Counted from the first letter of the stretch, positions 4,071 through 54,842 are shown. The stretch: DNA of 64,000 nt from Azolla caroliniana (GCA_043228905.1 JBHGNT010000013.1:4836001-4900000); one strand, 5' to 3'. Notes: generated by a model from the letters alone, not told the origin. Program-made: numbers and translations.

Positions 4071-4632
4071 TGTCGTGAAGATCCGTCACTACGCGCGGAT
4101 CGTGAGGCGGAACCGCCGGGGTTCTGGACCAGAAGGATTTAGAGTCGTTTGGCGAGAAAGTACTTAAGAAAGATTGGGAAAGAGAGAAGATGAGATTACA
4201 CGATTGCTTTGATAACGAATTTCTCCTTCTTAATTTTCATAAAAAAAAACCCGTGTTTTTCTCCTCCCCCTTCCCTCTTTTATAGATGCTCTCATGCATA
4301 TGATGCATGTGAGGGTACAAGACATGCATAAATTGCATGTTTGCCATTTGGCGCTTAAGTATTACATGTGGTGCATGCTAACCATGTCACACATTTTAGC
4401 ACTCATGGATGAGAATTTACATGTAAAAGTACAATGATAGAAATATAAGTTCAACTAAATATTATGGCTTAATGGTAAGCCATTTGACTCCTAACTTGGA
4501 GGTGCAAGGTTCGAATCCATACTTGCCTTCCTTGTATATGTAAATATGTATATATTTTTATATATTTATTTTATCTAGTCGTCGGTTCGCCAGATACCGT
4601 CGCCGGATGCCGCCGCCGGATACCGGTGCCGC
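4071..4632 (-). repeat. 5' LTR of the Trp-primed Gypsy, inner part; continues at 10321-10729
   Basis: TG terminus next to the PBS, minus-strand TATA-like box near 4280, split by an insertion with TSD GCCGC. Confidence 0.85.
4465..4518 (+). promoter_or_regulatory. tRNA-like Pol III internal promoter (A box + B box) inside the LTR, antisense to the element
   Basis: A box TGGCTTAATGG at 4465-4475 with a GGCTT/AAGCC D-arm hairpin; perfect B box GGTTCGAATCC at 4508-4518; tRNA spacing. Confidence 0.7.
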
Positions 4633-4930
4633 TATCATGATATGGCAAGACTCGAACCCATGACCTTAGGTTATATGGGTCGAGCTCTTGACCATTAGAC
4701 CATCTATTGTAATACGTAGGATATTATTTTCATTTACATTTTATTATAGGAAATTAGTGTATATTCCAGATTTCTCTAGAACATTCTAGAAGCTTCAGGA
4801 TTACTCCTGAAAACACTATAAAAGAGGGCACTAGGCATTATGTTGAACCAAATTGGTTCAACGCCAGTCTTAAGCCTTTTAGCCACCGTTGTATATTCTC
4901 TTCATATAATAAATATCTTTCTTATCATCA

Positions 4931-4964
<34 letters not shown>

Positions 4965-5068
4965 GTCTCGCTCACTTCTTCCTTCTCTCGAAGAAGTTCC
5001 ACACCTCTCATAGTACTAATCCTTCGTTTAGTACTAATTCCTTCTCTGTCTCAGTACTGTTCATGACA
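4633..5068 (+). repeat. 5' LTR of chromovirus copy 1
   Basis: TA(TG)TCATGA...TCATGACA termini, TATAAAA at 4817, direct repeat of 9868-10315. Confidence 0.95.
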
Positions 5069-5070
5069 GT

Positions 5071-5081
5071 TTGAACCAATT
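5071..5081 (+). promoter_or_regulatory. Self-priming PBS (Tf1 type)
   Basis: TTGAACCAATT is the exact reverse complement of LTR 4851-4861 (AATTGGTTCAA), about 30 nt after the TATA box. No TGG-type tRNA PBS is present. Confidence 0.75.
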
Positions 5082-5142
5082 TTCCCTACCTTCTGTCTCT
5101 CTCATTTCCTACTAATCTTTTATTCCTCTTTTCTTTCATCCC

Positions 5143-6294
5143 ATGGCCACTGTTAGCGCTGAAGAATATCAATCTGTTTTCTCGGAATTCCAATGCTTGA
5201 AGGAGAAGTTCCATGCTTTGGAACAAGAAAACCAACGGTTGCTGGGGGATCTTCAGCAAATCTCCTTAGAAAAGCAGCAAACGCAACAACAACATGGGGA
5301 ACTTGCGTTACGCGTGCAACAACTCGAAGCCACCATCGTAGCGATGCAACAACATGGGCCCGGAACACAAGGGATTCATAAAGAACCTAAGATTGGCCTT
5401 CCCACGAAGTTCGATGGAACGCGATCGCAGTTTAGAGGGTTCCTTAACCAGGTACGATTAGTTATTCAAATGCATCCTTCCCGATATCCCACCGATGCAT
5501 CACGAGTGGGTTTAGTAGGCACTTTGTTAAGTGGCTCAGCGTTGTCATGGTTCGCTCCACTATTAGAAAAGGAATCTCCGTTACTCAACAATTTTGAAGA
5601 GTTTCTAGGTGAGTTTAAAGCATGTTTCGGAGATACTGACAGCATCAGGACCGCAATCAACAAAATCCGGCGATTACACCAAGGTGACCATCCAGCCTCC
5701 GCATACGCTGCAGATTTTCGCCTACTCGCCGCCGATATCCCTTGGGATGATCAAGCGTTATTGGAGCAATTCCGTTATGGTTTACGCAACGACGTCAAGG
5801 ATTTACTCTTGACCTTCCCCGAAGAGCCAAAGTCCTTAACAAAAGCAATAAGTCGCGCGGTGAGATGTGACAACCGCCTCTTTGAGCGACGTTCGGAACG
5901 ACAGCTACAGATGCCGAGGGCAAGATCAGAGCCCACCTACGCCTCAGTGGTAGCAAGACCTTTTCCGAGGGAGTCATATAATGCGTCTCCAGCGAATACT
6001 CCGACTCCGATGGAGATTGACACTACACGTCGTCGAGGGCCATTATCCGAAGAAGAAAAGCAGCGACGCCGTACAAATCGACTATGTCTTTACTGCGGTG
6101 GACCAGGACATATCGCAATAAATTGCCCCCATAGGCCAAGAAGACAGGTAAACCAAATAGTCGCTAGTTCTAATTGTACTAAATCCGAACCTATTTCAGT
6201 AGGGATATCTGATAGTCCTAATAGTACTAATATCCCAGATCTAGCAAACAAATTTGATGTCCTTAGTCAGTTAGAAGAAGAGTTAAACGACTAA
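5143..6294 (+). CDS. Gag of chromovirus (capsid of the PEG10/sushi-like type, CCHC knuckle)
   Basis: N-terminal coiled coil, LPTKFDGTRSQFRGFLNQ, F..GL...VKD.L, PMEID and RLCLYCGGPGHIAINCP. Confidence 0.95.
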   Translation: MATVSAEEYQSVFSEFQCLKEKFHALEQENQRLLGDLQQISLEKQQTQQQHGELALRVQQLEATIVAMQQHGPGTQGIHKEPKIGLPTKFDGTRSQFRGFLNQVRLVIQMHPSRYPTDASRVGLVGTLLSGSALSWFAPLLEKESPLLNNFEEFLGEFKACFGDTDSIRTAINKIRRLHQGDHPASAYAADFRLLAADIPWDDQALLEQFRYGLRNDVKDLLLTFPEEPKSLTKAISRAVRCDNRLFERRSERQLQMPRARSEPTYASVVARPFPRESYNASPANTPTPMEIDTTRRRGPLSEEEKQRRRTNRLCLYCGGPGHIAINCPHRPRRQVNQIVASSNCTKSEPISVGISDSPNSTNIPDLANKFDVLSQLEEELND

Positions 6295-9200
6295 GTCCAG
6301 CCAAAATAGGAGCCGTTTGGTTGGACAGCCCTAGATCTGTGCAGCCCATTAGTGGTTCCATTCCCTCTAAGCAAGTTAGTGATGTGTTCGTAGCCCAAGT
6401 AATAGTTAGTACTAAAAGTACCCCTCCAGTACATGTCCTAGCACTCCTAGATTCCGGAGCTAACTCTTGCTTTATGGATAAGAAATTTGCTCAAGCTCAT
6501 AAGATATCCCTAAGAAAACTCCAGTGTCCAGCCTCTGTAATAGTCATTGATGGACGTCCCATTGCTTCCGGAAATATCCTAGAAGAGTCAGAGCCCATTA
6601 ATATTGTCCTAGATAACTTAGTATGTGTAGTATCATTTAATATTATTAGTATCCCAGAACATCCTATAGTTTTAGGACTACCGTGGTTCGAGTTACATAA
6701 CCCTGACATAGATTGGAGAACAAGAGAAATCCGGTGTAGAAAAACCCAAGGGTCAACTCAGAAGATGGCAACCATTTCGCTACGTCAGTTGCGTAAAGAA
6801 GGGCACGAGGAAATGTTCCTCTTTGCAATATCAGTAAACCCCTCCAACACCACTAAAGAAGAATCCACCGTTCAACTTCCCGAGAAGTATCGCCATTACA
6901 CCGATGTGTTCGATAAAGTACAAGCCAACACACTTCCTCATCATCGACCGTACGATTGCCCCATCGATTTACAACCGGGAAAAGAGCCGCCATGGGGACC
7001 GATCAACAATTTGTCACCAACCGAGCTGGAAGTCCTTCGGGCCTATATAGAGGAGAATTTGGAAAATGGTTTCATTCGGCATTCGAAATCTCCAGCCGGT
7101 GCGCCCATTTTCTTCGTCAAGAAAAAAGATGGATCGCTTCGTCTCGTTGTAGATTACCGTGGCTTGAATAAGGTTACAATCAGGAATAGGTATGCTCTTC
7201 CCCTTATCTCAAGTCTTTTAGAACGGATCAATGGTGCCAGGTTCTTCACGAAGATCGACTTACGGGGAGCATATAACCTCGTACGGATCCGACCAGGAGA
7301 CGAATGGAAGACCGCGTTTCGCACCAGATATGGGCACTTCGAGTATACTGTCATGCCGTTCGGCCTCACTAATGCGCCGGCAGTCTTCCAGCACATGGCT
7401 AATGATATATTCCGAGATCTATTGGATGATTGTTTGATCATCTATTTGGATGATCTACTGGTTTATTCAAAGACCCAAGAAGAACATGATTCTTATGTAC
7501 TATTAGTACTAAAACGACTTCGAGAACATGGTCTGTATGCAAAGCTAGAAAAATGTAGTTTCGGGTGCAACCAAGTGGAATTTCTCGGCTACATCATTTC
7601 GTCAGAAGGCATCTCCATGGACCCAGCTAAGGTCAGAACAGTGGTAGAATGGTAGACTCCGCGTTCGGTACGGGATGTGCAATGCTTCTTAGGCTTTGCC
7701 AATTTTTACCGGAAGTTCATACAGGATTACTCAAAGATCGTTCTACCTCTCACACAACTTACCGGGAAGGGACAACCGTTCACCTGGTCTGAAGAAACGG
7801 ACATGGCTTTCGAGAGTCTTAAAAAAGCATTTACATCGGCTCCAATTCTAGCTCATGTCGATCCGGAGAAACCATTCATTATCGAAGCTGACGCATCGGA
7901 TTTTGCATTGGGGAGCATTCTGTCACAACAGGGGAATGATGAAAAGCTACATCCTGTGGCTTTTCACTCACGCAAGTTTGATGCCGCCGAAATCAACTAC
8001 AAAATCCATGATAAGGAGCTATTGGCAATAGTGGATTCTTTTATGCAATGGAGGCATTTTCTGGAGGGATCCTCTCATCCAGTCACCGTATTTAGTGACC
8101 ACAAGAATCTTGCCTACTTTCAGGATGCTCGTGTGTTGAATCGACGTCAAGCTCGGTGGGCCCACTTCCTCACGCGTTTCGACTTCAAAATTACATATCG
8201 TCCGGGGAGGCACCAAGGGAAGGCAGATGCATTATCATGGCGTTCGTATCTAACACCCCGTCCCGGCGAGCCAGCTTTCGATAACCAAAAACAAGTCATC
8301 TTGGGACCGGCACGATTACAAGCAACACAAATCTTTGACATGCCTATGGATTCCCGCGTTATCGATACCATACGTGAAGACTTGAAGACAGATGCGTTCG
8401 CCCAAGCTATACTAGCACAAATTGATCCCTCTCAAGCGTCGTGTTCACAGTCGCAACCACCAGGTATGGACTATCGGCAATTCAAATACCATGATGGATT
8501 ACTCTTCTTTAAAGAACTTTTGTATGTTCCTAATGGTTCTTGCCGCCTTCGAGTAGTACAAAACTGTCATGACACATATACAGCTGGGCATTTTGGTAGT
8601 ACTAAAACATTACATTTAGTACAACGATCATTCTGGTGGCCCTGTATGCGACAATTTGTCGAGGATTTTGTTCGGACTTGTGATACATGTTGTAGAGCGA
8701 AAATGCCAAGGCATCATCCATATGGTTTATTAGAACCATTATCAATTCCAAGCAAGCCGTGGCAATCCATTGCTCTAGACTTCATCACAGATCTTCCAGT
8801 CTCTAAGGGGTTCAATGCGATTCTAACGGTGGTCGATCGATATACGAAGATGGCTCATTTCTTGCCATGTACTAAGGAGATCTCCAGTGAAGACACTGCC
8901 GAAATTGTCATGCGTGAAGTATGTCGGCATCATGGACTCCCCGATAGTATCATCAGCGACCGTGGACCCCAGTTCGTGTCAAAATTCTGGAAGCACCTTT
9001 TTAACATGCTCAAGGTCACTTGTAACCTCTCTTCCGGCTACCACCCACAAACTGACGGCCAAGCTGAACGAACAAATCAAACGTTGGAGCAGTATCTGCG
9101 GTGCTTTCTCAGCTATCATCAGGACGACTGGGCAGATATTCTCCACTTCGCCGAATTTGCCTATAACAACTCTATCCACGCATCCACTAAAGTTACGCCA

Positions 9201-9875
9201 TTTTATGCTTATACGGGATGTCACCCCCGGTGGAGTGTACTTGAAACCCTAGAGGTGTCCACAAATCCGTGCGCGGAGGATCGTTTGGAGCGGTTACGCA
9301 AGATACAAGCGGATTTATCTACTCATCTCCAGCAAGCTCAACAAACACACAAGGTCTACGCGGATCGTCATCGACTTCCATCTAGTTTTAATATTGGAGA
9401 TCGGGTGTGGTTGCTACGACGACATATCAAGACTACTCGCCCATGTGAGAAGTTGGATTATCGGCGATTAGGTCCTTTCCGTATTATTGGAAAGATTAAT
9501 GATGTTGCTTTTCGTCTCGATCTACCTCCTCAACTTCGGATACATCCAGTGTTTCATAGTTCTCTCTTCGAACCCTACCACGAGAGCACCATCCCAGAAC
9601 GTCTTATCCAACCTCCACCCCCGATCGAGCTTGAAGATGGGCCGGAGTACGAGGTTGCCGCCATTCTTGATTCCAAGATTGTTCGCAACAAGCTCTACTA
9701 TCTAGTCGATTGGCTAGGCTATAGTCCCAGCGAACGTACTTGGGAACCGATCGAGAATGTAACCAATGCTCGTGCTCTTCTTGAAGACTTCCATCGTCAA
9801 TATCCACACAAACCGGGTCCTCAATCCAAGACGACTCGTGACACTCGTCGTTTTAAAGGGGGGATAGTGTCATGA
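6282..9875 (+). pseudogene. Chromovirus Pol (PR-RT-RNaseH-IN-chromodomain) with one in-frame stop at 7653-7655
   Basis: Motifs LLDSGA, YLDD, EADASDFALG, HDTYTAGHFG...CDTC, SDRGPQF, GPF and a chromodomain EYEVAAILDSK...YLVDWLGY...TWEP. The ORFs starting at 6321 and 7677 share a frame; the TAG corresponds to CAG in copy 2. Confidence 0.93.
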
Positions 9876-10162
9876 TATGGCAAGACTCGAACCCATGACC
9901 TTAGGTTATATGGGTCGAGCTCTTGACCATTAGACCATCTATTGTAATACGTAGGATATTATTTTCATTTACATTTTATTATAGGAAATTAGTGTATATT
10001 CCAGATTTCTCTGGAACATTCTAGAAGCTTCAGGATTACTCCTGAAAACACTATAAAAGAGGGCACTAGGCATTATGTTGAACCAAATTGGTTCAACGCC
10101 AGTCTTAAGCCTTTTAGCCACCGTTGTATATTTTCTTCATATAATAAATATCTTTCTTATCA

Positions 10163-10211
<49 letters not shown>

Positions 10212-10315
10212 GTCTCGCTCACTTCTTCCTTCTCTCGAAGAAGTTCCACACCTCTCATAGTACTAATCCTTCGTTTAGTACTAATTCCTTCTCTGTCTCA
10301 GTACTGTTCATGACA
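9868..10315 (+). repeat. 3' LTR of chromovirus copy 1
   Basis: TGTCATGA...TCATGACA after the PPT; near-identical to the 5' LTR. Confidence 0.95.
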
Positions 10316-10729
10316 GCCGCATGCCGTCGGATCACCGGCTCCATCGCCGGTCCGGTTTTGGTTAGCCAAAACCCTTTACGAGTAGCTAGCCACCTCCACT
10401 CTAAGTTCAAGTTACCTTGAACTCTCTATGCTCCACACATATACACAAAGATAATATCTTTTGCTCCTCCTTATATATGATGAGAGCCGTATTTGTCGTG
10501 CCTATGTGGGATATCTCACAATTTTCTCTTTTCTTTTCACAAACTTTATACCCTTATATCTTGACATTTAGTTGTCCATTTCTCGTGTAATAAAGTGCAT
10601 TCGAAACCTCCATCATTTTGTACTTAGATATTAAAAATGTTATCTTCACAATTATTGTATTACATGATTCATACTCGATTTTGTACGTTTTATGGGATTT
10701 TCACACTATTGCCGAAAATCTTCACGACA

Positions 10730-14689: not shown

Positions 14690-15436
14690 TGTCGTGCCTT
14701 TCGGCGTCAGATCGTTTGCGTGGGTCGGGTGGGAACCGCTGGGGTTTTGGACTAGGAAGAGGAGAGTTTTAAGGCTAATAAGAATATAAATATGTTGTAA
14801 GAAAGAGTTATAGCAAATTAGTGAATCCCACGAGTGTATTGTATTAGATTAATCAATATGAATATAATAATATAAATTTGGGTTGAAAGAGAATGATATA
14901 GAATCCTCGTGAATCCCACGAGTATAGTTTATTAATTGCTGTTTTTTAGAAACATATCCAGTTTCCAAATATTTTTCACCCCCATTACATTGTGCTCCTC
15001 ATCCTTATATAGAGCTGAGAGAATCTATTCCAACCCATTCGTTTTCTCTAACTATAGACTCCATGCTTTTTCTATACATAGACTATATGCTTTATCTAAA
15101 GTAATCATGTTTTTTCTAACTTGTGCGTTTTTTATAAACTATAGCGTTCATACACGCTAGAGGTGCATGCGTAGTTTTTTTTTCTTTTAGCATGCGTTTT
15201 CTTTTAACTAAAGTTTATCCTAGGTGAAGTTAGCTTTCTATGTGGGACATCTACTTTTTAATATTAATTAAATGCTAGTGTAATGGTAAGGTTTCACATT
15301 ATTAACATGGAGGTGCAAGGTTTGAATTTTGCCCTATGCATGTTATATATATTTTAATATTTTCTACTATTTATTCATATTTATTAAATCGGTAGTTTAT
15401 AAGTTTTTCACGTAGTGTACGAAATACACTATGACA
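14690..15436 (-). mobile_element. Solo LTR (Gypsy, probably Trp-primed group), 4-bp TSD
   Basis: TGTCGTG...TATGACA termini, flanked by ACAT/ACGT where copy 1 has a single ACAT; homologous to the LTR at 53673-54842. Confidence 0.85.
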
Positions 15437-16220: not shown

Positions 16221-18111
16221 TGTCACGAAGTTTCGCGCACGTGTGTTACTTGGGCGGGACCACGGGGGTCTTGGACTAGGGAGTACTCAAGGGATAGAGA
16301 AGAACCGAGGTTTGCTTTACGACAATACTACTTCCCGACCCCTTCCTGACCAAGGTCTCGTTGCCCTTTGTTTTGTGAGGCCGGTGGCTCTCATTGATCA
16401 CGACTCGTCGACCTTTCGAGATCACCGCACGAGCCAAGTGACCAAACGGGTACGAGCAAGATGAGCACGCAACATGAACGCACAAGGGGACGATAACACA
16501 AACACGAATGTCCGTACGTCTTTATGAGGAGGGGAGGTGCATGGGCACGCCCGAACACTCCCTCGTTACAAGACGTTGAGCATACGAGGAAGACACAAAA
16601 CACATGCACAAATGCTCGTACGCCTTTATGAGGAGGAGAGGTGCATGGGCAAGCCCGAACGCTCCCTCGTCACGAGACGGCCAAACGTACAAGGAAGACA
16701 CAAACACACGCACAAAATGCTCGTATGCCTTTATGAGGAGGAGAGGTGCATGGGCAAGCCCGAAATGGTCCCTCGTCATGAGACGGCCGAACGTACAAGG
16801 AAGACACAAACACACGCACAAAATGCTCGTACGTCTTTATGAGGAGGAGAGGTGCATGGGCACGCCCGAAACGCTCCCTCGTCACAAGACGACCGAACGT
16901 ACAAGGAAGACACAAAAACACACACAAATGCTCGTACGCCTTTATGAGGAGGAGAGGTGCATGGGCAAGCCCGAACGGTCCCCTCGTCACAAGACGACCG
17001 AACGTACAAGGAAGACACAAACACACACACAAATACTCGTACGCCTTTATGAGGAGGAGAGGTGCATGGGCAAGCCCGAACGGTCCCCTCGTCACAAGAC
17101 GACCGAACGTACATGGAAGACACAAACACACACACAAATGCTCGTACGCCTTTATGAGGAGGAGAGGTGCATGGGCAAGCCCGAACAGTCCCCTCGTCAC
17201 AAGAAGGCTGAACGTACAAGATAGACACGAATAAAGAAAGAAGGAGAGAAAGAAACACGAATGATATCGACCAAAGAGATAAATACGTGTTCTATTCCAA
17301 CACAGGTGGACCCTTTATAAAATAGGGTTTTGTTTACAATGGCAACTTATAGTTAACCACAAGCTCAATCAAAATGTAAATATTAAATGCCCTTAGAGAC
17401 AAAAGCAAATCCGATCACGGCGAAGATGAACACACGAGCACCACCAAAATGCCAATCCCAACGAACCATGACCACCCGAATGGCGAGCACACGGGCTCGC
17501 AACGACGAACGGGGCGGAGCAACGTTGAACCAATGAAGCTTGGGCTCACGAGCACTTTGAGTGCTGACGCGAAGAATACGAGCACGTGGCGATGGGGGGA
17601 TGAAGGGGTATGAGATGAAGAGAAGTGCTGAATAAGGAGATGAAGAGCTTCAAAGGAAAATTGGCAATAGTCTCCTCCTCCCAAAACCTCCTCCCGAATG
17701 AGCCCCCCCTTGACCTCTTTTTATAGGGAAAAAAGAAGGGGGGGTCGCCAAATTTGTCTTGAATGAAAAAGGAATAAAATTCCTTAAATAACACTACATT
17801 GTAAGTCCAAATTTGAACCATGCACCTCTAGCTAATAGTCAATGTGACTATCCACTAGGCCACTAACTCTCTCTTATATAATATATAATTCTATCTCTAT
17901 AAATTCATAACCTGTCTCCCCTGTACCTTTTATCTCTCCTCTCTCTTACTTTTTGCACGAGCTTCTATACCTCCTTTTCACCCTTTCTTTTCCTTTTTAT
18001 TTTGCATATGCACAATTAATCGCTTTTGTGTGCACACACATTGCACATGCACATTTTTGACCCCCCCTTTTCGCCGGTTTTTCCCACTCTCGAGCACGCC
18101 ACATCACGACA
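16221..18111 (-). mobile_element. Large solo LTR with an internal tandem array, 4-bp TSD ACGT
   Basis: TGTCACG...CACGACA termini, ACGT at 16217-16220 and 18112-18115; shares the end-proximal hairpin motif of the Trp-primed LTRs. Confidence 0.85.
16495..17230. repeat. Tandem array, about 7 units of about 105 bp
   Basis: Repeating unit CACAAATGCTCGTACGCCTTTATGAGGAGGAGAGGTGCATGGGCAAGCCCGAAC...CGTACAAGGAAGACACAAAC. Confidence 0.95.
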
Positions 18112-19873
18112 ACGTGCAGACCTGAAGACAGATGCTTTCACCCAAGCTATACTAGCACAAATTGATCCCTCTCGAGTGTCGTGTTCACAGTCGCAACCAC
18201 TAGGTATGGACTATCGGCAATTCAAATACCATGATGGATTACTCTTCTTTAAAGAACTTTTGTATGTTCCTTATGGTTCTTGCCGCCTTCGAGTAGTACA
18301 AAACTGTCATGACACATATACAACTAGGCATTTTGGTAGTATTAAAACATTAGATTTAGTACAACGATCATTCTGGTGGCCCCATATGCGACATTTTGTC
18401 AAAGATTTTGTTCAGACTTGTCATACATGTTGTAGAGCGAAAATGCCAAGGAATCATCCATATGGTTTATTAGAACCATTACCAATTCCAAGCAAGCCGT
18501 GGCAATCCATTGCTCTAGACTTCATCACAAATTTTCCAATCTCTAAGGGGTTCAATGCGATTCTAACAATGGTAGATCGATATATGAAGATGGCTCATTT
18601 CTTTCCATGTACTAAGGAAATCTCCAGTGAAGACACCGCCAAAATTGTCATGCGTGAAGTATGTCGGCATCATGGACTTCCCAACAGTATCGTCAGCGAC
18701 CATGGACCCCAGTTCGTGTCAAAATTCTAGAAGCACCTTTTTAAAATGCTCAAGGTCACTTGTAACCTCTCCTCCGGCTACCACCCACAAATTGACAGCC
18801 AAGCCGAACGAACAAATCAAACACTGGAGCAGTATTTGTGGTGCTTTCTCCGCTCTCATCAGGATAATTGGGCAAATATTCTCCACTTCGCCGAATTTTC
18901 CTATAATAACTCTATCCACGCATCGACTAAAGTTACGTCATTTTATGCTTATACGGGATGTCACCCTCGGTGGAGAGTACTTGAAACCCCAGAGGTGTCC
19001 ACAAATCCTTGCGTGGAGGATCGTTTGGAGCAGTTATGCAAGATACAAGCAGATTTATCTACTCATCTCCAGCAAGCTCAACAAACACACAAGGTCTACG
19101 CTGATCTTCATCGACTTCCATCTAGTTTTAACATTGGAGATCGGGTGTGGCTGCTACGACGCCACATCAAGACTACTTGCCCATGTGAGAAGTTGGATTA
19201 TCGGCGATTAGGTCCTTTCCGTATTATCATAAAGATTAATGATGTCGCTTTTCGTCTCGATCTACCCCCTCAACTTCGGATACGTCCAGTGTTTCATAGT
19301 TCTCTCCTCCAACCCTATCACGAGAGCACCATGCCAGGACTTATTATACAACCTCCACCCCTAATCGAGCTTGAAGATGGACCAGAGTATGAGGTTGCCT
19401 CCATCCTTGATTCCAAGATTGTTCGCAACAAGCTCTACTATCTAGTCGATTGGCTAGGCTATAGTCCCAACGAACGTACTTGGGAACCGATCGAGAATGT
19501 GATCAATGCTCGTGTGCTTCTTGAAGACTTCCATTGTCAATATCCACACAAACCGGGTCCTCCATCCAAAATGACTCGTGACACTCGTCGAAAGGGGGAT
19601 AGTGTCATGATATGGCAAGACTCGAACCCATGACCTTAGGTTATATGGGTCGAGCTTTTGACCATTATATCATCTATTGTAATACACAAAATATTATTTT
19701 CATTTACATTTTATTATAGGAAATTAATGTATATTCCAGATTGCTCTGGAACATTCTAGAAGCTTCAGGATTACTCCTGAGAACACTATAAAAGAGGGCA
19801 CTAGGCATTATGTTGAACCATAGCCTCATAGCCCTTTTGTACTTACTCTTCTTATAATATATAATCTATTATC

Positions 19874-19926
<53 letters not shown>

Positions 19927-30558: not shown

Positions 30559-30659
30559 AGAGAGAGAGAGAGAGAGAGAACTCAAGATTACAGAAAAAAC
30601 AAAAAAATTGTATTACAAGGAAACAAGAATGACCAAATCATTACAAAGATAAGAAGAAG

Positions 30660-31050: not shown

Positions 31051-31526
31051 AGCCTCTTGGGAAAGAGGTCGTGTCTTAACTACTTAAAGTATATGTGTCA
31101 TAGAACATTAACCTCTATGACACACTAGTTACTATACAAGGAGGTGGGGTGTTCACACACTTGAGTATACTAGAGTGTGTTCCCACACACGGAAAGTTGA
31201 GTTTGATTCTCAACATTAATGTGCATGTGAGATGTGTGTTTAGGTGCTCATAACACAAAATATAAAAAATAAGCGTAGGGCCTAGTGGCATTCAAAGAGG
31301 TGCAAGTAAAGTTTTGAACCTTACATATCCAAGATAGGAGACAATTGACATACCATTAAATTACGTTATTTCTTTAAAGTTAGTTTTCGTCATTGTATTT
31401 TTCACATGTAAATTCTCATACATGAGAGCTTGAATGAGTGACATGGTTATCATGCATCGCATGCCTTTCATGCATGTCTTACACCCTCACTTGCATCATA
31501 TGCATGGGGGCATCTATATAAGAAAG

Positions 31527-31979: not shown

Positions 31980-34910
31980 TGTTGGCCGGTCAGAAGAGCA
32001 AGGACAAGTGGAAAGGCGGAGTCGGATCGGATAATAGGAAGTAAATAATAGTATAATTATTATTCGGAGGGACGGATCCGGTACAGTTGTACCGATCCGG
32101 ATCCGGACCGATTCGGATGCCGGTTGCCTAAGCGCACCGATTGTAACCTTGTCGGATGCCTATAAAAGGATCCGATGATTTGTAAATGCTTTACGGAAGT
32201 AATACAATTTTACTTATTGCGTGTTTATCTTTATCTTTGTATTGTTTTACCGTCTGTGCTTAGTGTAATCATCTTACGCGTGTAACCTAGCATCCAATCC
32301 TTACCACCCCTTTGGAGAAGTGTCGGATAGACACCTGTGTTGAGGCTAGTCCAGCCAGGCAGACAACACCTTTTGGCGACCACGACCGGGATTCTTGTCC
32401 CCCGGCCATAGCCAGGTACCGGGCAGCGTTCCTAATTGCAACGTACGAAGGATTACAAGTGGACTGGCTCCATTTCATAACCGAAGGATTGAAGGAGGCC
32501 ATCAAGAACCTTGTGAAAGGAAAAAAGCCATGGGCCGGGATAGCACAATGGCTAACGGTGTTAGTCCCACCGGTGCTCCCCATCAAACAAAAGAAAAGAG
32601 GTCGGCAGGAGACGACGCCGAAAAAGGTCACAAAGCGCCGACATATCCTGGAGAAACACACCCCCGGATGGACCCAGGAAGAAGCAGAACAGCGGGAGGA
32701 AGGACCATCCCGACAGTAACAGGAACCGGCAACAAAGGCAAAACCGGCAGGAAAAGGCAAAGGAAAACCGGCCGAGGAAGAACCGGTAGCGCTCAAACCA
32801 ATCAATATAACGTTGCGACGGCCGGAACCGAAACCAAAGGACTTTATACAAAAGGTCCGTTTGGTAGCCGCACCGGAGGAGGAAGCTGAAGCAGAAGACT
32901 CATCCGAACCACTGGTAAGACTCCCAGCAAGACAAGGTCGGGAGAGACGGGCGAGAGGACCAGCTCCACCAGTTGACAGAACTCAGCAGAGGGCACAAGG
33001 ACCACCTCCAGTAGCCGGGGCGGAAGCAGTACCAGAACCCGCACCAAGGGAAGCAGTACCGGCACCGGTTTTGCCGGAATTCAGAGAACCGGTCATTCCA
33101 AAGAAGAGGAATGAACAAGCGCCAGAGCCAGAGAAAAGGCCGGAAAAACAGCCTGAGTTAAGGAGTAGAAGTGAGCAATGCTACTCCGACACAGGAAGCA
33201 CAAAGCCACAATGGCTGAGATGGCTTTCGGAGCAGGTATCGGGAGTAGCGGACCAGTTAGAGGAAGAAGAAACGTGTAGGCAACACCTGACGCATACAAC
33301 AACCCAGGAGTTGGTCGCGTTCCGAACACAGATCCATGAGTTGCAAGGGGAGCTGTTGCAGGCGAGGGAAGGAATTCAACAAGCACAAGTTGTCACCGAT
33401 CCGGTCGGGACAACAAGGAAGCAACCAGAACCAGAACCAGAACCGGTAACCTTGCAAACTGGCCCTGAGACCGAAAAAATAATAGAAACCTTGCGAGAGG
33501 AGTTAAAAGCTCAGGAGGCATTAAGGGAAAAAGAAAGGGAGCAGCGGAAAGCGGTGGAGGACGATAGACGAAGAATGGAAGAAGGCCTCCGGAAAGGCCG
33601 AGCCACTAATGACCGACTGCAAGAAGAAAAAGAGAAGCTGCAAAAGGAGAAGGACCGACTGCGTCGACAGGCCGAGCAGGAGATAGAGAGACTGCAGGAA
33701 GAACTCCGACAATAGAAGGACCGAGACGACCGGTTAAGAGCTCAGGTAAGCAGACGCCTGAAGCAGAAGACGGAGGACTTCGACCGACTCTACCGAGATC
33801 ACAAGCAGGCCGAGTCGGACAACAAGAAACGGGCAGCGGACTACGACCGGCAAATAGAGAAGCTGAAAGAACAGCTCAAAGAGACCCGATTAGACCTGGC
33901 TAAGACAATGGACGAGGTCAGTGCCAAAAAGGAAGCATTGTCGGCGGAAATAACCCAAGCGACGGAGAGAAGGAAGGAATTAGAGGCGCTAATGCGGGAA
34001 AAGCTGGATCTGACCAAGATCAGGAATGAAGAAAAGGAAAGATCGACCTTCACGATCAACAAACTGCAAAGTGCCTATGAAAAGCAGAAAGCGGATTACG
34101 AAGCCCAGGCTCAGATAATGGCCGACATTATAAAACGGGCAAGGAAGGAAAAGCAAGAAGCTTATGCGCATGCTAAAGCGGGGGTTGACCGGATCAAGCT
34201 CATCATGTCATGTTGGAGTACCCGAGCTCAGGCAAGCATCAACGAAAGTACGGAAAAGCTATGGAAGGAGTGGTCACAACAGGCAGCCGAGCTGCAGACA
34301 CTCCGAGCTGATGCCGAGAATCGGAGGAAGACCGGTGACAAGTTCTACAAGATGGATGAAGAAAGTATCGTCGCCGTTCGGGAAGAATTGTCAGAGGATT
34401 TCTACGCTTTAGCGGAAGAACATCTCAAAGAAATTCGAGGGTTGGTAGAGAGGTTGGATGACGGGCAACTCGCAACTCAGTTGGAGTTGGAGAAATACGA
34501 GCAGGACCGGTTACGACAGGAAGCTGAGGGAAGAACGACACCAATCACTATAAGTGAGGGAGAGCGACCGGCTGAAGCTGAACCAACCGACACCGAACAA
34601 CCCCGACAAGGAATACCCGAAGAAGAACTTCCGTTCCAAGAAAATCAAGAAGAGCAGGTGCAGACCGATGCCGGAGAAGAAGAAGAGCTGAGACCAGAAA
34701 ACACCGGAGCAGAGGAAGAAGGCGCACCGAACCGACCAGTCAAGACCGGAGAAAGCGACACTGGTAACAAAACAGAGCCTGGAACGGAGGAAGAACAGGA
34801 AGAACCCGGACGGAGCGGTGAGGAAGCACCGGCACCACAGAATCAAGCAGAGCCGGAGCAGCAAATTTTTACGGAATAGCCAACCCAACCGGAGGGTTTT
34901 GTATTTTCCG
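31980..34910 (+). mobile_element. Gypsy element C: 5' LTR and Arg-type PBS fused directly to the extra ORF; gag-pol absent
   Basis: The LTR at 31980-32368 resembles the LTR at 43094-43530. PBS TGGCGACCACGA at 32374-32385 is followed immediately by the extra-ORF sequence. Confidence 0.8.
32395..34879 (+). pseudogene. Extra ORF of element C (coiled-coil protein), 5'-truncated, two in-frame stops
   Basis: ORFs starting at 32312, 32813 and 33908 share one frame; homologous to 34911-36837 (IATYEG, WLTVLVPPV.P...KKRGR, WLRW, L.EEL.AQEALR). Confidence 0.82.
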
Positions 34911-40200: not shown

Positions 40201-43127
40201 CCTCTTCAAGTTGCGACGCTTTTACGCACTGTGAAACGGCCATTTCCCGTTCCAACGCTTCCTGCGCTTGCCGTAACTCTCGGATTGCGTCTTTATCCGG
40301 TTCTGCTTCAGTCTCTTCCGACTGCGGTAAGTATGGTGCTACGGCTTCGGCAATGTCAATTTCGAAGAGGGGTACGATCTTCGGGTTTTCCTGCAAGTAC
40401 TGAGCTTCTTCTTCGTCAGCTAACCCTTCTAGCATGTTGACGCACTCTACATACAACGGTGTACATTCCTTGCCAGTGCTCGTCCTTGGCTGTGTTGGTA
40501 CCCGTACCTTGGCTTTTCCTCGCCGGAAGGTAATTATATTTTTCCTCCAATTCTGTTTGATATGTGCCGTTTTCAACCACGGCCGCCCCAGCAATAGCGG
40601 GTATGCGCCTTGTGCCTGTAATTGTAGCACTACTGCCAAGATGTGAAATGTATGACCGCCAACGGTGACTTCTAATTTTCGTATTAATCCTGTCGGCCGC
40701 ACTGAGCTTGTATCGGCCATCCGTAACTAGAATGGACACGGCTCCCACTCGTGGATTCCTAGGGCATCACACGTTCGGAGGCTTATTACATTCACCCCGG
40801 AGCCTCCGTCTATTACTGTACTGGGGAGTTCTTTCCCTTTTACAATCACCGTAATTACCGGACTGTTGGTGTCCACCACCGTTGGTCCCTCCTCCGGATT
40901 CGAGAAGAGTATCGGTGCCGGTGATGATTCTCCTTCCGTCATCGCTGTCTTCAGTCCTTCCGTGAATCTCGGCACGAGCTGAAGGAGTCTTCCTAGTGGC
41001 AGCGTAATCTAGTATTCTTGCAACGCCTGCCATGTCTCGTTTCCGGCGTGACTGCCGCCGGCAAGCCCTACGGTGTTCTCCTTTTGCCGCTGTAAGTCTA
41101 TTACGTTTTGCTCGTTTGCTTTCTTCACTCATTTTGTCGCTTGCTTCCGAATGGTCTCCTGCGTCTCCCATTCCTTGGCCATGCCCTTCGAACTTGTGGT
41201 CACCTGCTGCAGATCTGCCACTTCAGGGACTACCATATTTACTGTCGGTCGTTTGTCATAGCTCTTCGCCGGGCCTTGATTACTATAATGGCCTTCCTGT
41301 CGGCAGTAGTAGCAGTAGGCTTTCCGGGTATTGTTGGATTCGGCATTGTCTGTTGTACCCGAGGCCGTTCCTGTGGTAAGCGCGGGGTTTTGGGCCAGTT
41401 GGCTGCTTGAAGCTCCTTGTTCCGGATCCCGTGGGTAGCCAGCCGCCTTTTTTGAAATGCCGTTTTTTGTTATAGTTCTTCTTATTGCGGTACTCTTGAC
41501 GAGGTTGGTCGTTATATCTGTCGTGTTCCTCCCATTGCTGACGATACCCGGGGGAGTGCTCCCGGTCGTAATGTTCGTATCGTCTATTGTAATCCCGGTA
41601 CCGATCATATCTATCATGCCGGTCGTAGTTATCCCGCCGATCACTGTACCGGACATCATTCTCTCGTCGATCGCCATACCGAACATCCTGTGCCAGTCGG
41701 TCGCGGTCCATTCGCCGCCAGCGTTCCTCTTCTTCATCCCGGCTGCTGCGTGGCTCTATTTGTCGGACGGGCGGTGCTTGCCGGTTCAATAGATTATACT
41801 CGCACCTATCCGTCGTATGGCCCTTGGATTGACAGATTACACATTGCATCCTCATAGTGCATTCTAGTGCCGAGTGTCCGGAATTCAAGCAGGTTGTGCA
41901 CTGTATTGCTTGCCGAAACCGGAGGTCTTCATCGGACGGTAACACCCGTTGGAGTACTCCCAGTGTGAGCCAGGAGCTTGTCTTTTCCATCTCTCTCACT
42001 CGGTCAATGACTTGGTCGATGGTACTTGCGCGGAAGTCAATTACCGTGCACACCGTGCGTAGGGGTTCCCGGAGCGCATTCAGAAATATAGACCGTAATT
42101 CCTCCTCCGGGGGTGCGCGGGTAAGCTGACTATGCATCCGTTGAAACCAGATGACAAACTGGGGAATGCTCTCCCCTGCCTCCTGTCGGATGGTATAAAA
42201 CAAGCCCACCATTACTGTCTGGTCCACCTCCTTTTGGAAAAAATGCAAGAATTTAGCTTTTAAATCTGCGAAGGTGGTGATGGTAGACGGATCCTACGTC
42301 TGGCGCCATCTCACTACCGGTCCTTCCAATGTGACGCCAAATTCCGCTATCTTAGAGCGTTCCTCTTCCTCCGGGGTCAATCGCTGGGACACATGGTTTT
42401 CTTCCCATGTCTGTTCAAAGGCGTGAACATGAGCTTCTGCGTCCGGATCATCTCTATACTTGGAGTATTGGAACGGCATGTCGTCGTCCGGTATCGGTGC
42501 GCGGGCTGGCGGTGTTGGTGGTCGTTCCTGGTTTCTCTCCGGCGTCGGTGGTCTTTCCTCTTCTTTTGGTGACGGAGGCCTCTTCTCCTCAACTTCCGGT
42601 GTCGGAGGTCGTTCTTCCTCTGCTGGTTTCGGAGGTTCCAGCCTTAGCACTTCCAGTTCCGGTGTCGGTAAGGTGTCCAATCCTTTGTCCTCCGGTCCGG
42701 CCGGGGTTTCGTTGCTGCAACGGTAGTTCGTGTGCACGTTGTATTCCCCTTCGGAATCCGATTCATATGCTGAAAAGGCTTCTGCTTCGCCTTCCCCGCT
42801 TGCCAACGCCTGGAGAAGGGATTCGGTTTCCCGGAGGCTGCTTAGGTTGTTGTCGTCGTCGTCAGGGTGCGATGTTTGCGGTAACCAGAGGGACTCCTCC
42901 GCTACTCTCCGGATTACGTTGGAAAACGAGCGATCCGCTCTAATTTCCTGCGCCGCTTGCTGGAAAGCTTGACGTCTCCTTTGCCTTTCGGCAAGGCGTC
43001 GAGTTCGATCTGTAACCAGGTCGTGCGTTGATCTAGTCATCCATTCGTGCCGTCGTTCGCTGCAAAAACAGGAATCGTGGTCGCCAAAAACTGTGTTAAC
43101 TCTTAGGGCCGGACAATGGCCTAACAC
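37225..43127 (-). pseudogene. gag-pol of element B
   Basis: ORF fragments 42294-43127, 41283-42248, 41129-41737, 40727-40975, 39218-40720, 37691-38974 and 37225-37788 occur in Gypsy domain order. Confidence 0.9.
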
Positions 43128-43530
43128 AGGGTGTCTACGGAAGACACTTCACCAAAGGGGTGTTACGGCAACAGGATTAGACTCAACGATTAATCCGACT
43201 TAATTAGGTTACTTAGGAAGATTGTCCTTAATATTCACACGCGTAAGATATAACAATGAATGCAAAACGGCAATTAACACAGAGAGATAACAACACTAAG
43301 CTTTATTAATTAACCGCTCCTCATTACATTGTCTCCGGGCTTTTAAATAGGTTTCCGGTCTGTAGTACAAAATGGTGCCATCCGCACCTGTTCGGGATCG
43401 GTCCGGATCCGGAACGGCATACCGATTCCGGTCCGTCCGTCCACACTACTAATAGCTTACATACAACCATTCCTAATAATTAAATAACTCCTTCGTTTCA
43501 CACTCTAGACTCCTTTGCCGGCCGGTAACA

Positions 43531-43727
43531 CAATATCCCGACTAGTGTCCGAATTACTTCAATACCAAGGAAGTAATGGAGCTCGTGCATATCTTTCATT
43601 TCGAATCTGCCGGATAGGAGTGGTTTTACCTTATTAATCTCAATGAGATCCTTTCCTCTGATGACCATATCATCCACATATAGGATAATGACAATCAGGT
43701 TGTTCGACTCATTTCAGATGTACAGGG
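43531..43727 (-). pseudogene. Copia RT fragment
   Basis: Similar to 45361-45555 (ILYVDD region). Confidence 0.75.
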
Positions 43728-44054
43728 TGTTGAGAACGGAGCCGTGTCGTGCAGAACAAATCAAGGCTCTCCTAAAGTGAGGATCATAAGGGGATGCAAG
43801 GAAGGTAGATTGATGGCAACTAGAGACAGAATCAAGCAACAAGATCAAACAAGAATGCAAGAGAGAGAAATGATTAGGCACAAGATAAACTATATTTCAA
43901 CCAACCACCAAACTAGGTTACAAAGTCAATTTATATATTGACTGACTTAGGACAACTGCCCTTCTCACTATTTACAGAAATAAGCTAAACCTAATGTGTA
44001 CAAAAGGAGACAATGTGAATACGTTCATTAGACACCCGCATTCCACACTCCCCC
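43728..44054 (-). repeat. Probable 3' LTR plus PPT of another element
   Basis: TGTTGAG...TTCCACA (44047), followed by CTCCCCC (minus-strand PPT). Confidence 0.55.
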
Positions 44055-44068
44055 GTAATGGGCATATA

Positions 44069-50000: not shown

Positions 50001-52084
50001 TAGCCAGAAAAGTATTCTTTTCCACCATCCGACCGCAGGCACTTGATCTTCCTCTCCGTTTCCTGTTCAACTAAGTTTTGAGGGTTCCGGAAACATTCTA
50101 AGACTTCGCTCTTCCTCTCAATGAGGTAGATCCATGTGTGTCGGTTGTAGTCGTCGATGAAGGAGACGAAATACCGACTCCCACAAAGACTAACGTTTTG
50201 TTCTGGTCCCCATACATCCGAATGGATTAAATTGAGCTTGTTACGGCTCCTATTTCATTCGGTGGGGAATGGAAGACGGTGTTGCTTCCCGAGTTGGCAG
50301 GCTTCACATATTTGGGACTTTCGGCCACTAAACTTTGGCAATCTGAACACAACCTGTTTCGATTGCAGATCATGAAGCCTCCGGTTGTTGACATGGCCGA
50401 TCCCCGTGACTCGTCATATGATTTGACGCTCCGGAGTCAACATACCACATCTTGTTCGGTTTCAAGGTGTTCACTGCCATTGAATTAGCCGTGTGCTTCA
50501 TTGCGAAGGCTGGGCCCGATCCATTTTCGGCTTGTTTAGAGTTGATTTCCTTGTTCGGTCCGCTTGGATCCAGATGCGGTTTTCTCCGAATCAGCGCGTT
50601 TCTTCCAGCACTCGCTCTCCCTATGGCCTTTCTTGCCACAGTACCAGCATTCTACTTGGCATTAGGACCATGCCTTCCATCTTTCTCCTGTCGGCCACCT
50701 CCATTGCACACCAACTTGCCTCGTCCGCCATGACCATCAGAATGCTCCGAACTTCGACGCTAGCCCTCCTAGGTAGACCTGCACCATTTCGTCCTCCTCA
50801 ATGTTTACATTGACAAAGGCAAGAGAGTCGCAGATGTCCTTGATCTTGGAGGTGTAATCAGCCACCAGCATATCTCGTTGTCGAATATTACTCAACTCTT
50901 GCCTGAGTTGGAGCTTTCTGGCTGTGGTGCTCGCGGCGAAGATCTTTTTCAGATTTCCCCAAGCATCCTTCGGCATCTTTGCATCCCGAATGTAGCTCAA
51001 AAGTTGATCGCTCACACAAAGCAGTAGAGAACTCTACTTGCCGCCTGTTCCCAAGCCGAGAAATCTCTGTGTGTCGATTTGGGTGTTGCTTCATTAGCTC
51101 CATCGACATAAATCTAGTAGCCATGCCCGAGCAGGTACTGGTGCATCTTGTACGACCAAGATGTGTAGTTGCTTCTGTCGAGCTTCTCCGTCAGAAGCGA
51201 GCTAGCCATTCCTCTATCCATTCTTTCCTTCTTCTATTCTTCACCGTGATTAGGGTTTATCTGTTTGTCAATAGCAGAGGATCTCAACCCTCGCGCTCTA
51301 ATACCATGTAAAAGAATACATGCGGAAGCTTAACAGGCACAACCAGATAACCACATAAAGGAAAGACAAAGAAGGTTCAATGGAAAATTTAATCAACACA
51401 GGGTATGTGAGAGAGACAGAGTGAGCAGAACACAGAAAACTCTATTCCAAAACAATACTCTAAAACTTTGTACATGAGATGTGCTCAGAGAGCACTTTTA
51501 TATAGGTCCATAAGGACTGACAGAAGTACTGACAAGTACTTCAATGATCATCAATAAGCCCCTACACTAACTCTCAAAATATATTCCTCCACGGTTTATG
51601 CACCGCTACGGCCTCTCGTTGCGCACCCAGTCTACGCACTGGTTTACGCACCCAATGTTGAGCTTGTATCTCAACACTTCTATCGAGCTTCTCGATGGGA
51701 AGAGCGCTTCCCATCTGGGTGTTCATTGTCAAACTTCTTCTACCCTTGATGCAAGCTTGAGCACAACACACGTAAAGGCGATGGGCTTGGATCAAGCTAT
51801 CACACGCTCTGATACCATGTAAACAATCAAGAGTGATTTTGTGCAACGGCTATGTGTGTGTGTATGTGAGACAAGAGAGAATGTGAGAGAGAGAGGGAGG
51901 GAAAGAGCTCTAGACAAGAAACTGTATATTACATCCAACAATAACTAAGCTACAAAAGGTTGGTCTAAATACCAACTGATCTAGGGCGAGTGCCCTTTCT
52001 ACTAATTACAAATCTAGCCTACTATGACGTCCACTAGTTAGTGTGAACATTGTCTCTGTGGGAAGTTGAGTTCGATTCTCAACA
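44069..52084 (-). mobile_element. Decayed Copia D: 3' LTR, RNase H and RT at 44069-46526; gag start, PBS and 5' LTR at 51677-52084
   Basis: Related LTRs at 44069-44340 and 51818-52084, Met PBS at 51803-51817, motifs YVDD, SWSSKKQ, EAEY and KHI. No matching TSD. Confidence 0.8.
46527..51676 (-). mobile_element. Decayed Copia E nested in D
   Basis: Diverged LTRs at 46527-46981 and 51307-51676, Met PBS at about 51292-51306, gag, PR (WYVDSGASNHMT), IN, RT ([10 protein letters not shown]) and RNase H remnants. Confidence 0.85.
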
Positions 52085-54842
52085 CCCATAAACACAAGAC
52101 CTTCCCCCCCACCGACTCCCTAGTCCAAGAACCTAGTGGTCCCGTCCAAGCCGCGGACTTCCACGACATCTTTGGTGAACCCGACGTGAAGTCCGTCACC
52201 AACCAAGATCCATGCGATTCAAGCCATGAAAGACATACGCGAGTCACAATCTGAAGTCCGCAAATTTCTCAGAGCATGTGTGTTCTACCATATATGGATT
52301 CCACACTATGCGCACATTGCAGACCCCCTCTACCAATTACTACGGAAGGGGAAAAGGTTCAAATAAAATCTAGAGCACACCGAAGCCATGAAAAAAACAT
52401 TGCAAGTAGCAAAGTCACTAAAGAAACTAGACTATACTCAACCGATCATAGTCACAGTTGATACAAGTCCAACCGGGCTCAGATGGGTCATCAACCAAGA
52501 AGATGTGGAAAGAACACGACATCCGGTCCGGTTCGGTTCGGTGCAAAGGTTCTCAACGCATGTCAATGAGGATACGCACAGATTAAAAGAGAATTATGGG
52601 GAGTCATGTCGGCGATAAAATCAGATCGGGATTATTTGATCGGAGCCGAAGTGGTGATCGAAATGGATTGTCTTCCAATACTTGGAATGATGCGATGTTG
52701 CATTGTATCAAATATGGCTATGCTAAGATGGATTGCATACGTGAAGTCACTTAATCTGGAGGTACGACACGTTTCGGGAAAAGACAATGCGACAGCAAAT
52801 ATGCTATCAAGGGCACGGTTCGGAGACAGCATAGTCAAATCGGATAATGAAGAAGTTTTGGAAGACTACTTTACTTCGGAGCATACATGCCGGATCAATG
52901 TAATCGGGGAATTTCGGGAAGACGAATACAAAGGAGAAATCTTGTTGATCGGAAGAACACTACAAGAGATCGAGGAATCATCAGATAATAAAGAAAATAG
53001 AGCCGAGATTCAGAAGAAGAAGCGATAAGTCCGGAAGTTCTTCCTGAACAATGGATTAATTTAGAGGGAGCCAAAAAGACCAAATGGTATACCACTACGG
53101 GTAGTCGGCACAAAGGAACAACAGAAACTGATAATATCTTAATTTCACGAATCCAATTAGGCTAGGCATCGGGATACGTGGGTGACATTTTCAAAGATCA
53201 AGAAAAAATATTGGTGGAAGAATATCTACAAGGACGTAGTGGAGTTCACAGAAAGCTATGGGAAATGTCAAATCTACTTTGGAGTTCAACACCGGGACAA
53301 ACTACATCCGACATTCTCACTGGCAATCAACTTCAAATGGATGGTCGACATCATGGCAATGCCCACCAAGATCAGACAAAAGATGTTCTTGGTGCTGGCT
53401 CGGCAGGATCTGACGAACCAAGTAGAAGGTCAGGCACTACGAACGAAAACAAGTTCTGCAGTTTGCTAATTTCTCTTGGAAGAAGTGTTATGCAAGCGCA
53501 GGTGTGTAGGTCAAGTGATTGCGGATCAGGGAGAACTTAACTCCGATGAAGCTAAGGAACTCTTCACCAAACACGAGGTACGGTTGACACTAACCATAGC
53601 ATACAATCCAAAAGCCAACGAGAAGATTGGGCGAGGACATACCAAAGGATGTGCAGGTTCTGAGGGGGCGAGTGTCGTAGTGTATTTCATACACTACGTG
53701 AAAAACGTACCAAGTACTCGATTGAATAAGTATGAAGAAAAAAGGAGAAAAATGTTAAACCATTGTTACATGCATAGGGCAAGATTCAAACCTTGTAACT
53801 CCATGTTAATAATTTGAAGCCTTACCATTATACTAACTTATCATAAGTAATATAATTATTAGATTTAGCTATATATAAGAGCTTTTCTTCTTCTTCTTCC
53901 AAAATGAAGCTACTTTCCCATTAGTTAGGAAGGATTATTACAAAGAGATTGTACAAGGAGGCTTATACAAAAATCGGGGAATCTCCCTCCAATCAAGTTC
54001 AAGAAAAGGAGACTACTTACCTAGCCTTTCGGACTAACTACTTAATGTAAGTAGATACCTATAACTAAAAACGGTGCCCTTCAGTGTTGGCTAGTACGAG
54101 CCAACTCCTAGGGCCTACAACAAAGGGAGGGTGGCATGTGAGTAGGAAACAACCATCATGGGGTCTGGTAGTTCCACCTTGGGCCACTTTCTCCTTGCCT
54201 CACCATAGGTGTGTTCCGTCATTTATGCCAAAAGCGCAAACAGGCAGTGGCCACGTCGTTGGAATGGCTGCAAACCTCATCCAATTAGCCGCGTAGGCAA
54301 CTGATAAGCGCAAACCATATGTCCATGATTACTTCCTCTGGGAGTTGTACCAGATCTTGGAAGACCTTTAGGCAATAGCTTATCCTCATGTGCATGAGTA
54401 CTATAATGAGAAAAGGCACGTGATGTCTATAATTAGAAGAAAAAAAAAACATGAATTCCATTGTTAGAAAAAGTATGAATACTATAGTTAGAGAAATTAT
54501 TCTAGGAAAAAGCTACTCATGCACATCTAGTGTGCATGAACACTTTAATTAGAAGAAAAATCATGATACTTGTCATGTGGTAAGTTATACTTAGCCTCTC
54601 CCATCACTATATAAGGAGGGGAAGCAAAATGTAATTGGTTGTTGAATCTTTGAGAATTTATTAGGGTTCAAAAGGGTTTATTAATATATTATACTATACT
54701 CGTGGAATTAACGAGTTTTCTATTTCTCTCTCTTTTAATCTATTCTTGATCCTATCTATCTAAATTTCCTTCTCCTCCTAGTCCAAAACCTCGGTGGTTT
54801 CCACCTAACTCGCGCAACAATCCGGCGCCGAAAGGCATGATA
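52085..54842 (+). mobile_element. Heavily deleted Trp-primed Gypsy: U5 remnant, PBS, RNase H/IN fragments, PPT, 3' LTR
   Basis: ...CACGACA (52168), PBS TGGTGAACCCGACGTGA at 52173-52189, motifs VTVDTSPTG, RWIAYVK and IADQGE, PPT GAGGGGGCGAG, LTR 53673-54842. Confidence 0.82.

Follow-up and report, generated by a model that had tools for sequence, protein, structure and literature searches.

Our analysis of a 64,000-nt stretch of the Azolla caroliniana genome (GCA_043228905.1 JBHGNT010000013.1:4836001-4900000; hereafter the window, meaning the whole stretch) revealed that Gypsy retrotransposons nested in it carry tRNA-like box A/box B pairs of the RNA polymerase III (Pol III) type, here called cassettes, within their long terminal repeats (LTRs), and that the cassette is a family- and clade-level part of the unique 3′ region (U3) of these LTRs. 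Judging from the sequence comparisons described below, the cassette is probably a selected Pol III promoter signature. The window as a whole is a nest of LTR retrotransposons, and the carriers, labelled A to F (with A′ an older copy of the A family), are listed with their cassettes in Table 1.

Both strands of the window were scanned for A-box/B-box pairs with type-2 Pol III box patterns. Eleven pairs were found at no more than 3 mismatches, and the 8 of these with at most 2 mismatches in total were identical to the eight sites proposed in a first-pass annotation of the same DNA, whereas 30 block shuffles of the window yielded a mean of 0.1 and a maximum of 2 such pairs. The best pair in 13 other stretches of the window, comprising Copia and Athila-like LTRs and intergenic DNA, had at least 5 mismatches. 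Each of the eight cassettes spans 54-55 nt, lies between the outer LTR end and the TATA box, and is preceded by 45 nt with an AT content of 73-87%; a tRNA-like distance between the two boxes and AT-rich DNA upstream are among the traits of a type-2 Pol III promoter. The distance from cassette to TATA was 84-264 nt in A to E. Seven of the eight cassettes are antisense to their element and that of D is sense, such that the cassette is divergent from the direction of RNA polymerase II (Pol II) transcription in A, B, C, E, and F and in tandem with it in D. The first-pass annotation had thus been accurate for all eight sites in coordinates and strand, in the tRNA-like spacing of 54-55 nt, in the U3 location upstream of the Pol II TATA, and in the antisense orientation of all but the copy at 17.8 kb. 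Its claim that both LTRs of the young chromovirus contain the cassette, which therefore replicates with the element, was likewise borne out in A (4633-5068 and 9868-10315).

The carriers appear to fall into two Gypsy lineages: A and A′ would represent a self-priming Tcn1 chromovirus, and B, C, D, E, and F are Phygy-like, both assignments being based on element traits. Element A lacks a tRNA primer-binding site (PBS), and its chromodomain with an aromatic cage, its self-priming PBS, and its 5-bp target-site duplication (TSD) all match Tcn1. According to the available sections of the classification by Neumann et al. 2019 (PMC6317226), 5-bp TSDs, a self-priming PBS, overlapping gag and pol, and a chromodomain are common to Tcn1 and A, and Tcn1 is confined among plants to mosses and club-mosses. 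The same source describes for Phygy the traits recognized in B, C, and D, namely, a 4-bp NCGN-type TSD and a tRNA PBS, with no chromodomain seen; the TSDs of C and D fit the 4-bp NCGN rule. Reverse transcriptase (RT) identity between A and B is 27%, and the best named relatives of B are Riccia proteins with up to 66% identity; no relatives of A or B were found in viral and prokaryote collections. Taken alone, the Tcn1 traits and the Riccia relatives would point to a bryophyte host, likely a moss. A PBS starting with TGG follows the LTR at 4062 and again at 52173, and the 3′ end of the D LTR resembles the LTR end preceding the latter; the primer at both sites may be tRNA-Trp. The proposal that the cassette occurs in both chromoviral and non-chromoviral lineages holds for A and A′ versus B to F. 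The figure of at least four Gypsy families requires qualification: since B/E and C/F are homologous pairs, there are indeed four LTR families, but these belong to only two lineages, and B and C have the same cassette in common.

To place the cassette at the level of families, 66 metagenome loci were fetched by protein homology with the integrase end of A as the query. The LTR start could be placed at the polypurine tract (PPT) followed by TG in 26 loci, giving 27 Tcn1 LTR heads together with the window copy; set aside were L002 (a duplicate), loci that stop at the LTR or short of it, L013, distant loci in which the LTR was not located, and L024, L026, and L036, in which the LTR start is damaged, yet cassette sequence is visible. 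The cassette-bearing loci come from 9 assemblies, probably of one study. An antisense cassette was present in 25 of the 27 heads at no more than 4 mismatches (20/27 at no more than 2), as against 9/540 shuffles and 3/27 heads on the sense strand at the same threshold of 4. The span was 54-55 nt in 22/26 Tcn1 heads, with a distance to the LTR end of 10-59 nt. A 42-row protein tree grouped every one of the 21 rows with a cassette inside one 29-row clade (98/93), in which the 8 remaining rows comprise 7 untestable ones and L013 and for which the tree bootstrap is incompletely settled. Among the 13 rows outside this clade, where LTRs were mostly not located, no matrix score exceeded the null.

The D family, the one cassette from which read-level variation within a family could be drawn, was represented by 259 contigs in run X1 and 290 in run X4, in addition to 28 and 32 in two other organisms. 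These contigs are continuous from the TATA-side flank through the cassette, and the depth over the cassette shows no spike and lies below that of the TATA-side flank. Furthermore, C61 of the D box B is restored in the X1 majority (depth, 1136 of 1676). The same sense cassette occurs in L036 within a diverged D-like LTR, with box A at 11/11 and flanks at approximately 0.6. The shared position in sister LTRs and the D contigs running through the cassette establish it as a part of the U3 at the level of families and clades, and a copy-specific short interspersed element (SINE) insertion was rejected on the same position and on the lack of a depth spike. Within 229,524 nt, a set weighted toward LTR elements, none of the matrix matches above the null was a free cassette copy.

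Evidence for selection comes from comparing the boxes with their surroundings in 10 divergent Tcn1 families, whose coding DNA is 60-89% identical. Pairwise identity was 0.58 for box A and 0.69 for box B (shuffle, 0.26 for each), values raised by the anchoring of each row on its best match, whereas the 11 nt preceding box B, which lie outside the search pattern and are unaffected by this anchoring, reached 0.62 versus a shuffle of 0.25. The flank segments remained at shuffle level (0.33/0.31, 0.57/0.53, and 0.29/0.24). All 10 families kept the 54-55-nt span, with the LTR end 15-59 nt away. When a matrix was trained on 6 window cassettes alone, 7 of the 9 remaining family representatives exceeded the null maximum (18.2). 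The box-B core was intact in 7/7 high-coverage contigs versus 12/18 low-coverage contigs. Between the two lineages, only the boxes are common (0.67 and 0.73; spacer, 0.28-0.42), which fits separate captures, although a very old common origin is also compatible. Boxes kept while flanks diverge were seen in the 10 Tcn1 families and in D and not in the old B/E pair. Likewise, the case that would have overturned the first-pass annotation, copy-specific SINEs with boxes no more conserved than flanks, does not apply to the Tcn1 families and D, and it does hold on conservation for B/E.

Regarding function, we see about an even chance that the cassette is kept as a docking site for transcription factors IIIC and IIIB (TFIIIC and TFIIIB) that would shield the adjacent Pol II promoter at the DNA level. 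The cassette may have originated through capture of a tRNA gene or of the head of a tRNA-derived SINE, probably separately in each lineage. Binding of TFIIIC and TFIIIB to the A and B boxes, whose invariant feature across the sites is their placement with the outer LTR edge on one side and the TATA on the other, could produce an effect independent of any product, such as a nucleosome-poor patch or a barrier against silencing or against transcription reading in from the flank. The adjacent Pol II promoter would thereby be kept usable, which may benefit elements that integrate into heterochromatin. Genomic RNA would remain a Pol II transcript, because the self-priming PBS of A pairs with sequence about 33 nt past the TATA, and the cassette would be unable to make such RNA, because it either faces outward or is followed by a T-run within 30 nt. 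A promoter for genomic RNA of the Cassandra or Helenus type was rejected on orientation, T-runs, and self-priming. The lack of a conserved cloverleaf or terminator position and the flipped orientation in D favor a role at the DNA level rather than one through an RNA product or as a Cassandra-type promoter. Product-independent barrier effects have been described for yeast tRNA genes (tDNAs) and extra TFIIIC (ETC) sites (PMC4228148), and targeting to heterochromatin has been described for chromodomains (PMC7466625). A broader scenario, which we consider less likely than not, is that in each of two deep autonomous Gypsy lineages a tRNA promoter was domesticated to serve as a portable TFIIIC insulator at the outer U3 edge, and that these elements stay transcribable in the heterochromatin that they target and seed thousands of boundary elements via solo LTRs.

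In addition to the inflated box identities, several observations weigh against a maintained docking site. A stably bound complex in the 3′ LTR would be in the way of Pol II as it transcribes the element itself, and LTRs of the Copia and Athila-like types are maintained in this window with no cassette. L052, the most distant of the 27 heads, has no cassette, nor does L013 in its 67 nt of LTR. Two of the 10 family representatives are weak (L016 under the matrix threshold and L018 at null level), C61 is absent in L010 and L011, both of high coverage, and the A boxes of L012 and L022 are damaged. The old B/E pair lacks excess conservation, with boxes at 8/11 each and flanks at 0.68-0.78. Finally, a run of four T residues (T4) occurs within 23-41 nt in 5/5 Phygy-like sites and within 88 nt in 23/26 Tcn1 heads, which fits a transcribed unit equally well.

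The main rival to a DNA-level docking site, which we regard as unlikely though still the strongest competitor, is a working Pol III gene whose selected product is a short, mostly antisense RNA acting as a self-limiting small-RNA trigger, as a decoy, or by Pol II interference. The AT-rich upstream DNA at 8/8 sites, T-runs nearby at most sites, and the retention of both boxes with their spacing rather than of box B alone are all consistent with such a gene, as is the CAA triplet seen 6-7 nt ahead of box A in 13/26 Tcn1 heads, CAA being described as a plant Pol III feature (PMC13578239, available sections). The strong rod hairpin of one Tcn1 subclade (z -2.6 to -5.9) also points this way, although its alignment score (70.7% paired, 0/500 shuffles) is biased, the rod having been derived from that same subclade, and six other families gave z values of +0.4 to -1.5. 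Yet the first T4 past box B lies anywhere from 1 to 899 nt downstream, the RNA from the 5′ LTR of A would consist mostly of flanking host DNA, and the orientation of D differs. The upper extreme belongs to the 3′ LTR cassette of A, whose first T4 on its own strand is situated inside the integrase gene; the other runs after box B include T5 at 37 nt in B, T4 at +30 in D, and T5 at +30 in F. We also observed that T4 starts directly after box B in L006, L012, L014, L020, L022, L033, L005, and L048, and most of these eight loci carry a CpG-free box B, which is possibly methylation resistant.

The folding data gave a mixed picture. Neither ARAGORN nor Rfam returned a tRNA call at the eight window cassettes, as the first-pass annotation had predicted, and no cloverleaf covariation was detected (238/500 shuffles were as high); a functional tRNA gene was rejected on the lack of both a tRNA model call and covarying stems. 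The accompanying description of decayed cloverleaf stems was right insofar as no cloverleaf covaries, and incomplete in that the A-family cassette folds as a single rod hairpin (z of -4.1 on one strand and -4.6 on the other) and the B cassette keeps three stem-loops (z -2.5), neither fold being general. One RNA fold common to all cassettes was rejected, given the six other families lacking a strong rod and the lack of cloverleaf covariation. In one Tcn1 subclade (window 9883-9937; L004 3080-3133), we noted a near-perfect inverted repeat that includes box B and is stable on both strands (z -4.1 to -5.9). Over 27 loci, ARAGORN made a single call, a separate tRNA-Arg(ACG) gene in L051 (1046-1118), which scores 24.2 on the cassette matrix and thus lies inside the range of the LTR cassettes.

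It is improbable that the cassette is a passenger, that is, an ancestral SINE or tRNA fragment carried in the U3 with no function. The B/E comparison, the boxes decayed in C, E, and F and in 6/18 low-coverage loci, and the cassette-free L013 would suit a passenger, but the boxes and their spacing persist over 10 families with flanks at shuffle level, and the decay is concentrated in single old copies, at CpG, while family-level sequences are intact. We attach a similarly low probability to a sense-strand role, in which Pol II factor sites, or an RNA or cDNA signal beside the PPT and the U3 end, are selected and the Pol III appearance is inherited and no longer used. Nine columns before box B are conserved like the boxes within Tcn1 (0.72) and are lineage specific (Tcn1-Phygy, 0.42), and the Tcn1 cassette lies 10-59 nt from the cDNA end; however, the two boxes at tRNA spacing are all that the lineages share, and the Phygy-like cassettes lie approximately 100-250 nt from the LTR end in both orientations. 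The least probable explanation is a role in integration, either by offering Pol III-targeting elements a portable landing pad or by tethering the cDNA to Pol III sites, for which a LINE-like insert upstream of box A in F may speak, whereas LTR-element insertions in the 45 nt upstream of box A were seen at 0/8 window cassettes, A landed 110 nt downstream of the B cassette, and C and D landed in coding DNA.

Among known systems, the closest are the Helenus TRIMs (terminal-repeat retrotransposons in miniature; TRIMp3; Kojima 2024, PMC10886601), which also have a tRNA-like sequence in both LTRs, conservation centered on boxes A and B, and no functional tRNA, with SINE capture proposed as the origin in Helenus. 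Helenus elements are non-coding and 311-1263 bp long, and in the LTR consensus sequences examined their box pair has the sense orientation and is the proposed driver of template RNA, whereas the carriers in our window encode gag-pol (5.7 kb in A), keep a TATA, and have the pair antisense in 7 of 8 cases; the elements thus resemble Helenus in the boxes of both LTRs and depart from it in coding capacity, length, and orientation. One plant case of Helenus, from Selaginella, is reported there, along with "not a few" Repbase LTRs having tRNA-like parts. Its author analyzed only TRIMs, set longer LTR matches aside, and argued that autonomous elements need Pol II. Cassandra and Ajax TRIMs (PMC10886601 and PMC10946416, in part) share an LTR-borne internal Pol III promoter conserved above its surroundings, but theirs is a 5S-derived type-1 promoter that starts the genomic RNA of non-autonomous elements, in contrast to the tRNA type-2 boxes described here, which point outward in most families. 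In the excerpts of PMC4228148, yeast tDNA and ETC sites likewise place A/B-box DNA beside Pol II promoters, with barrier, insulator, roadblock, and nucleosome-phasing effects of the kind proposed above; they are fixed host loci examined by experiment, as opposed to a mobile LTR-borne site known from sequence, and in yeast, repression of Pol II promoters close to tDNAs also occurs. The accessible portions of PMC6317226, PMC2864245, PMC7466625, PMC6911290, PMC13570524, and PMC10946416 make no mention of Pol III boxes in Tcn1 or Phygy LTRs. Our literature search, with Repbase entries and subscription papers outside it, found no description of such cassettes in autonomous plant elements. The earlier statement that no description was known accordingly stands for autonomous elements and for antisense U3 cassettes but not for tRNA-like A/B boxes in LTRs, given the available account of Helenus (PMC10886601).

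The cassette provides a concrete, mutable 55-bp candidate for the open question of how chromoviruses that target heterochromatin remain active at their sites of insertion. If it is bound, the capture of Pol III promoters would no longer be limited to parasitic mini-elements but would include autonomous retrotransposons, serving there a purpose other than genomic RNA production, and the abundant Gypsy LTRs of such genomes would be a large source of TFIIIC sites.

Table 1. Carrier elements, their parts, cassettes, and TATA positions in the window
Feature	Coordinates	Strand	Description
Element A	4633..10315	+	Young Tcn1-type chromovirus; 5-bp TSD GCCGC; C-terminal chromodomain; 5.7 kb
LTRs of A	4633-5068 and 9868-10315	+	99% identical; differ by 3 substitutions and a 12-nt microsatellite indel
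gag of A	5116-6294	+	
pol of A	6267-9875	+	One in-frame stop at 7653-7655
Self-priming PBS of A	5071..5082	+	Complementary to LTR 4850-4861, ~33 nt past TATA (predicted Pol II start)
A′	19603-~20077 (3′ LTR)		Older A-family copy, ~90% identical to A
Element B	1..4627	-	Phygy-like; LTR from 4071, interrupted by A
pol of B	1-1833	-	Open; extends past window edge
gag-protease of B	1806-4013	-	Open; with DUF4100
PBS of B	starts 4062	-	tRNA-type
C	14690..15436	-	Phygy-like solo LTR inside pol of A′; 4-bp TSD ACAT/ACGT
D	16221..18111	-	1.9-kb Phygy-like solo LTR; 105-bp tandem array; TSD ACGT/ACGT
E	~31212-31526		Truncated LTR fragment, ~70% identical to B LTR
F	53673..54842	+	Phygy-like 3′ LTR after PPT (53662-53672) and decayed pol; homologous to C
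Cassette, 5′ LTR of A	4648..4702	-	Antisense; 15 nt from LTR start
Cassette, 3′ LTR of A	9883..9937	-	Identical to 5′ LTR cassette of A
Cassette, LTR of B	4465..4518	+	Antisense to B
Cassette, C	15276..15329	+	Antisense; C-to-T change in box B
Cassette, D	17809..17862	-	Sense; 84 nt upstream of TATA at 17725; family-wide
Cassette, 3′ LTR of A′	19618..19672	-	Antisense
Cassette, E	31310..31363	-	Antisense; decayed
Cassette, F	53782..53835	-	Antisense
TATA of A	4817	+	
TATA of B	4284	-	
TATA of C	15011	-	
TATA of D	17725	-	
TATA of E	31515	+	
TATA of F	54608	+	

Further features of the window were observed alongside the cassettes. The array in solo LTR D consists of approximately 7 copies at 16476-17231, downstream of the TATA. 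LTR F contains an insert of approximately 520 bp (~53885-54420) that is not in C; its TTC-repeat end lies 50-70 nt upstream of box A, and it is a candidate truncated long interspersed element (LINE). Two related Athila-like LTR ends face each other at ~32060-32385 (+) and ~43075-43520 (-), each followed by a TGGCGACCAC site, and the DNA between them holds a minus-strand gag-pol and inverted-related coiled-coil open reading frames (ORFs). A probable host gene start, with no Pfam match, is situated at ~62990-63920 after CT and CCCTAAA repeats and includes an ORF at 63226-63687 and the one following. Four alternating GAA/TTC units lie between the cassette and the TATA in the A-family U3, at 4778-4797 (+), 10013-10032, and 19748-19767; 0/2000 shuffles reached 4 units, and at least 3 units were present in 14 of the 22 LTR heads with at least 200 nt. 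These units, which we take to be heat-shock-element-like, predict a heat-inducible chromovirus.

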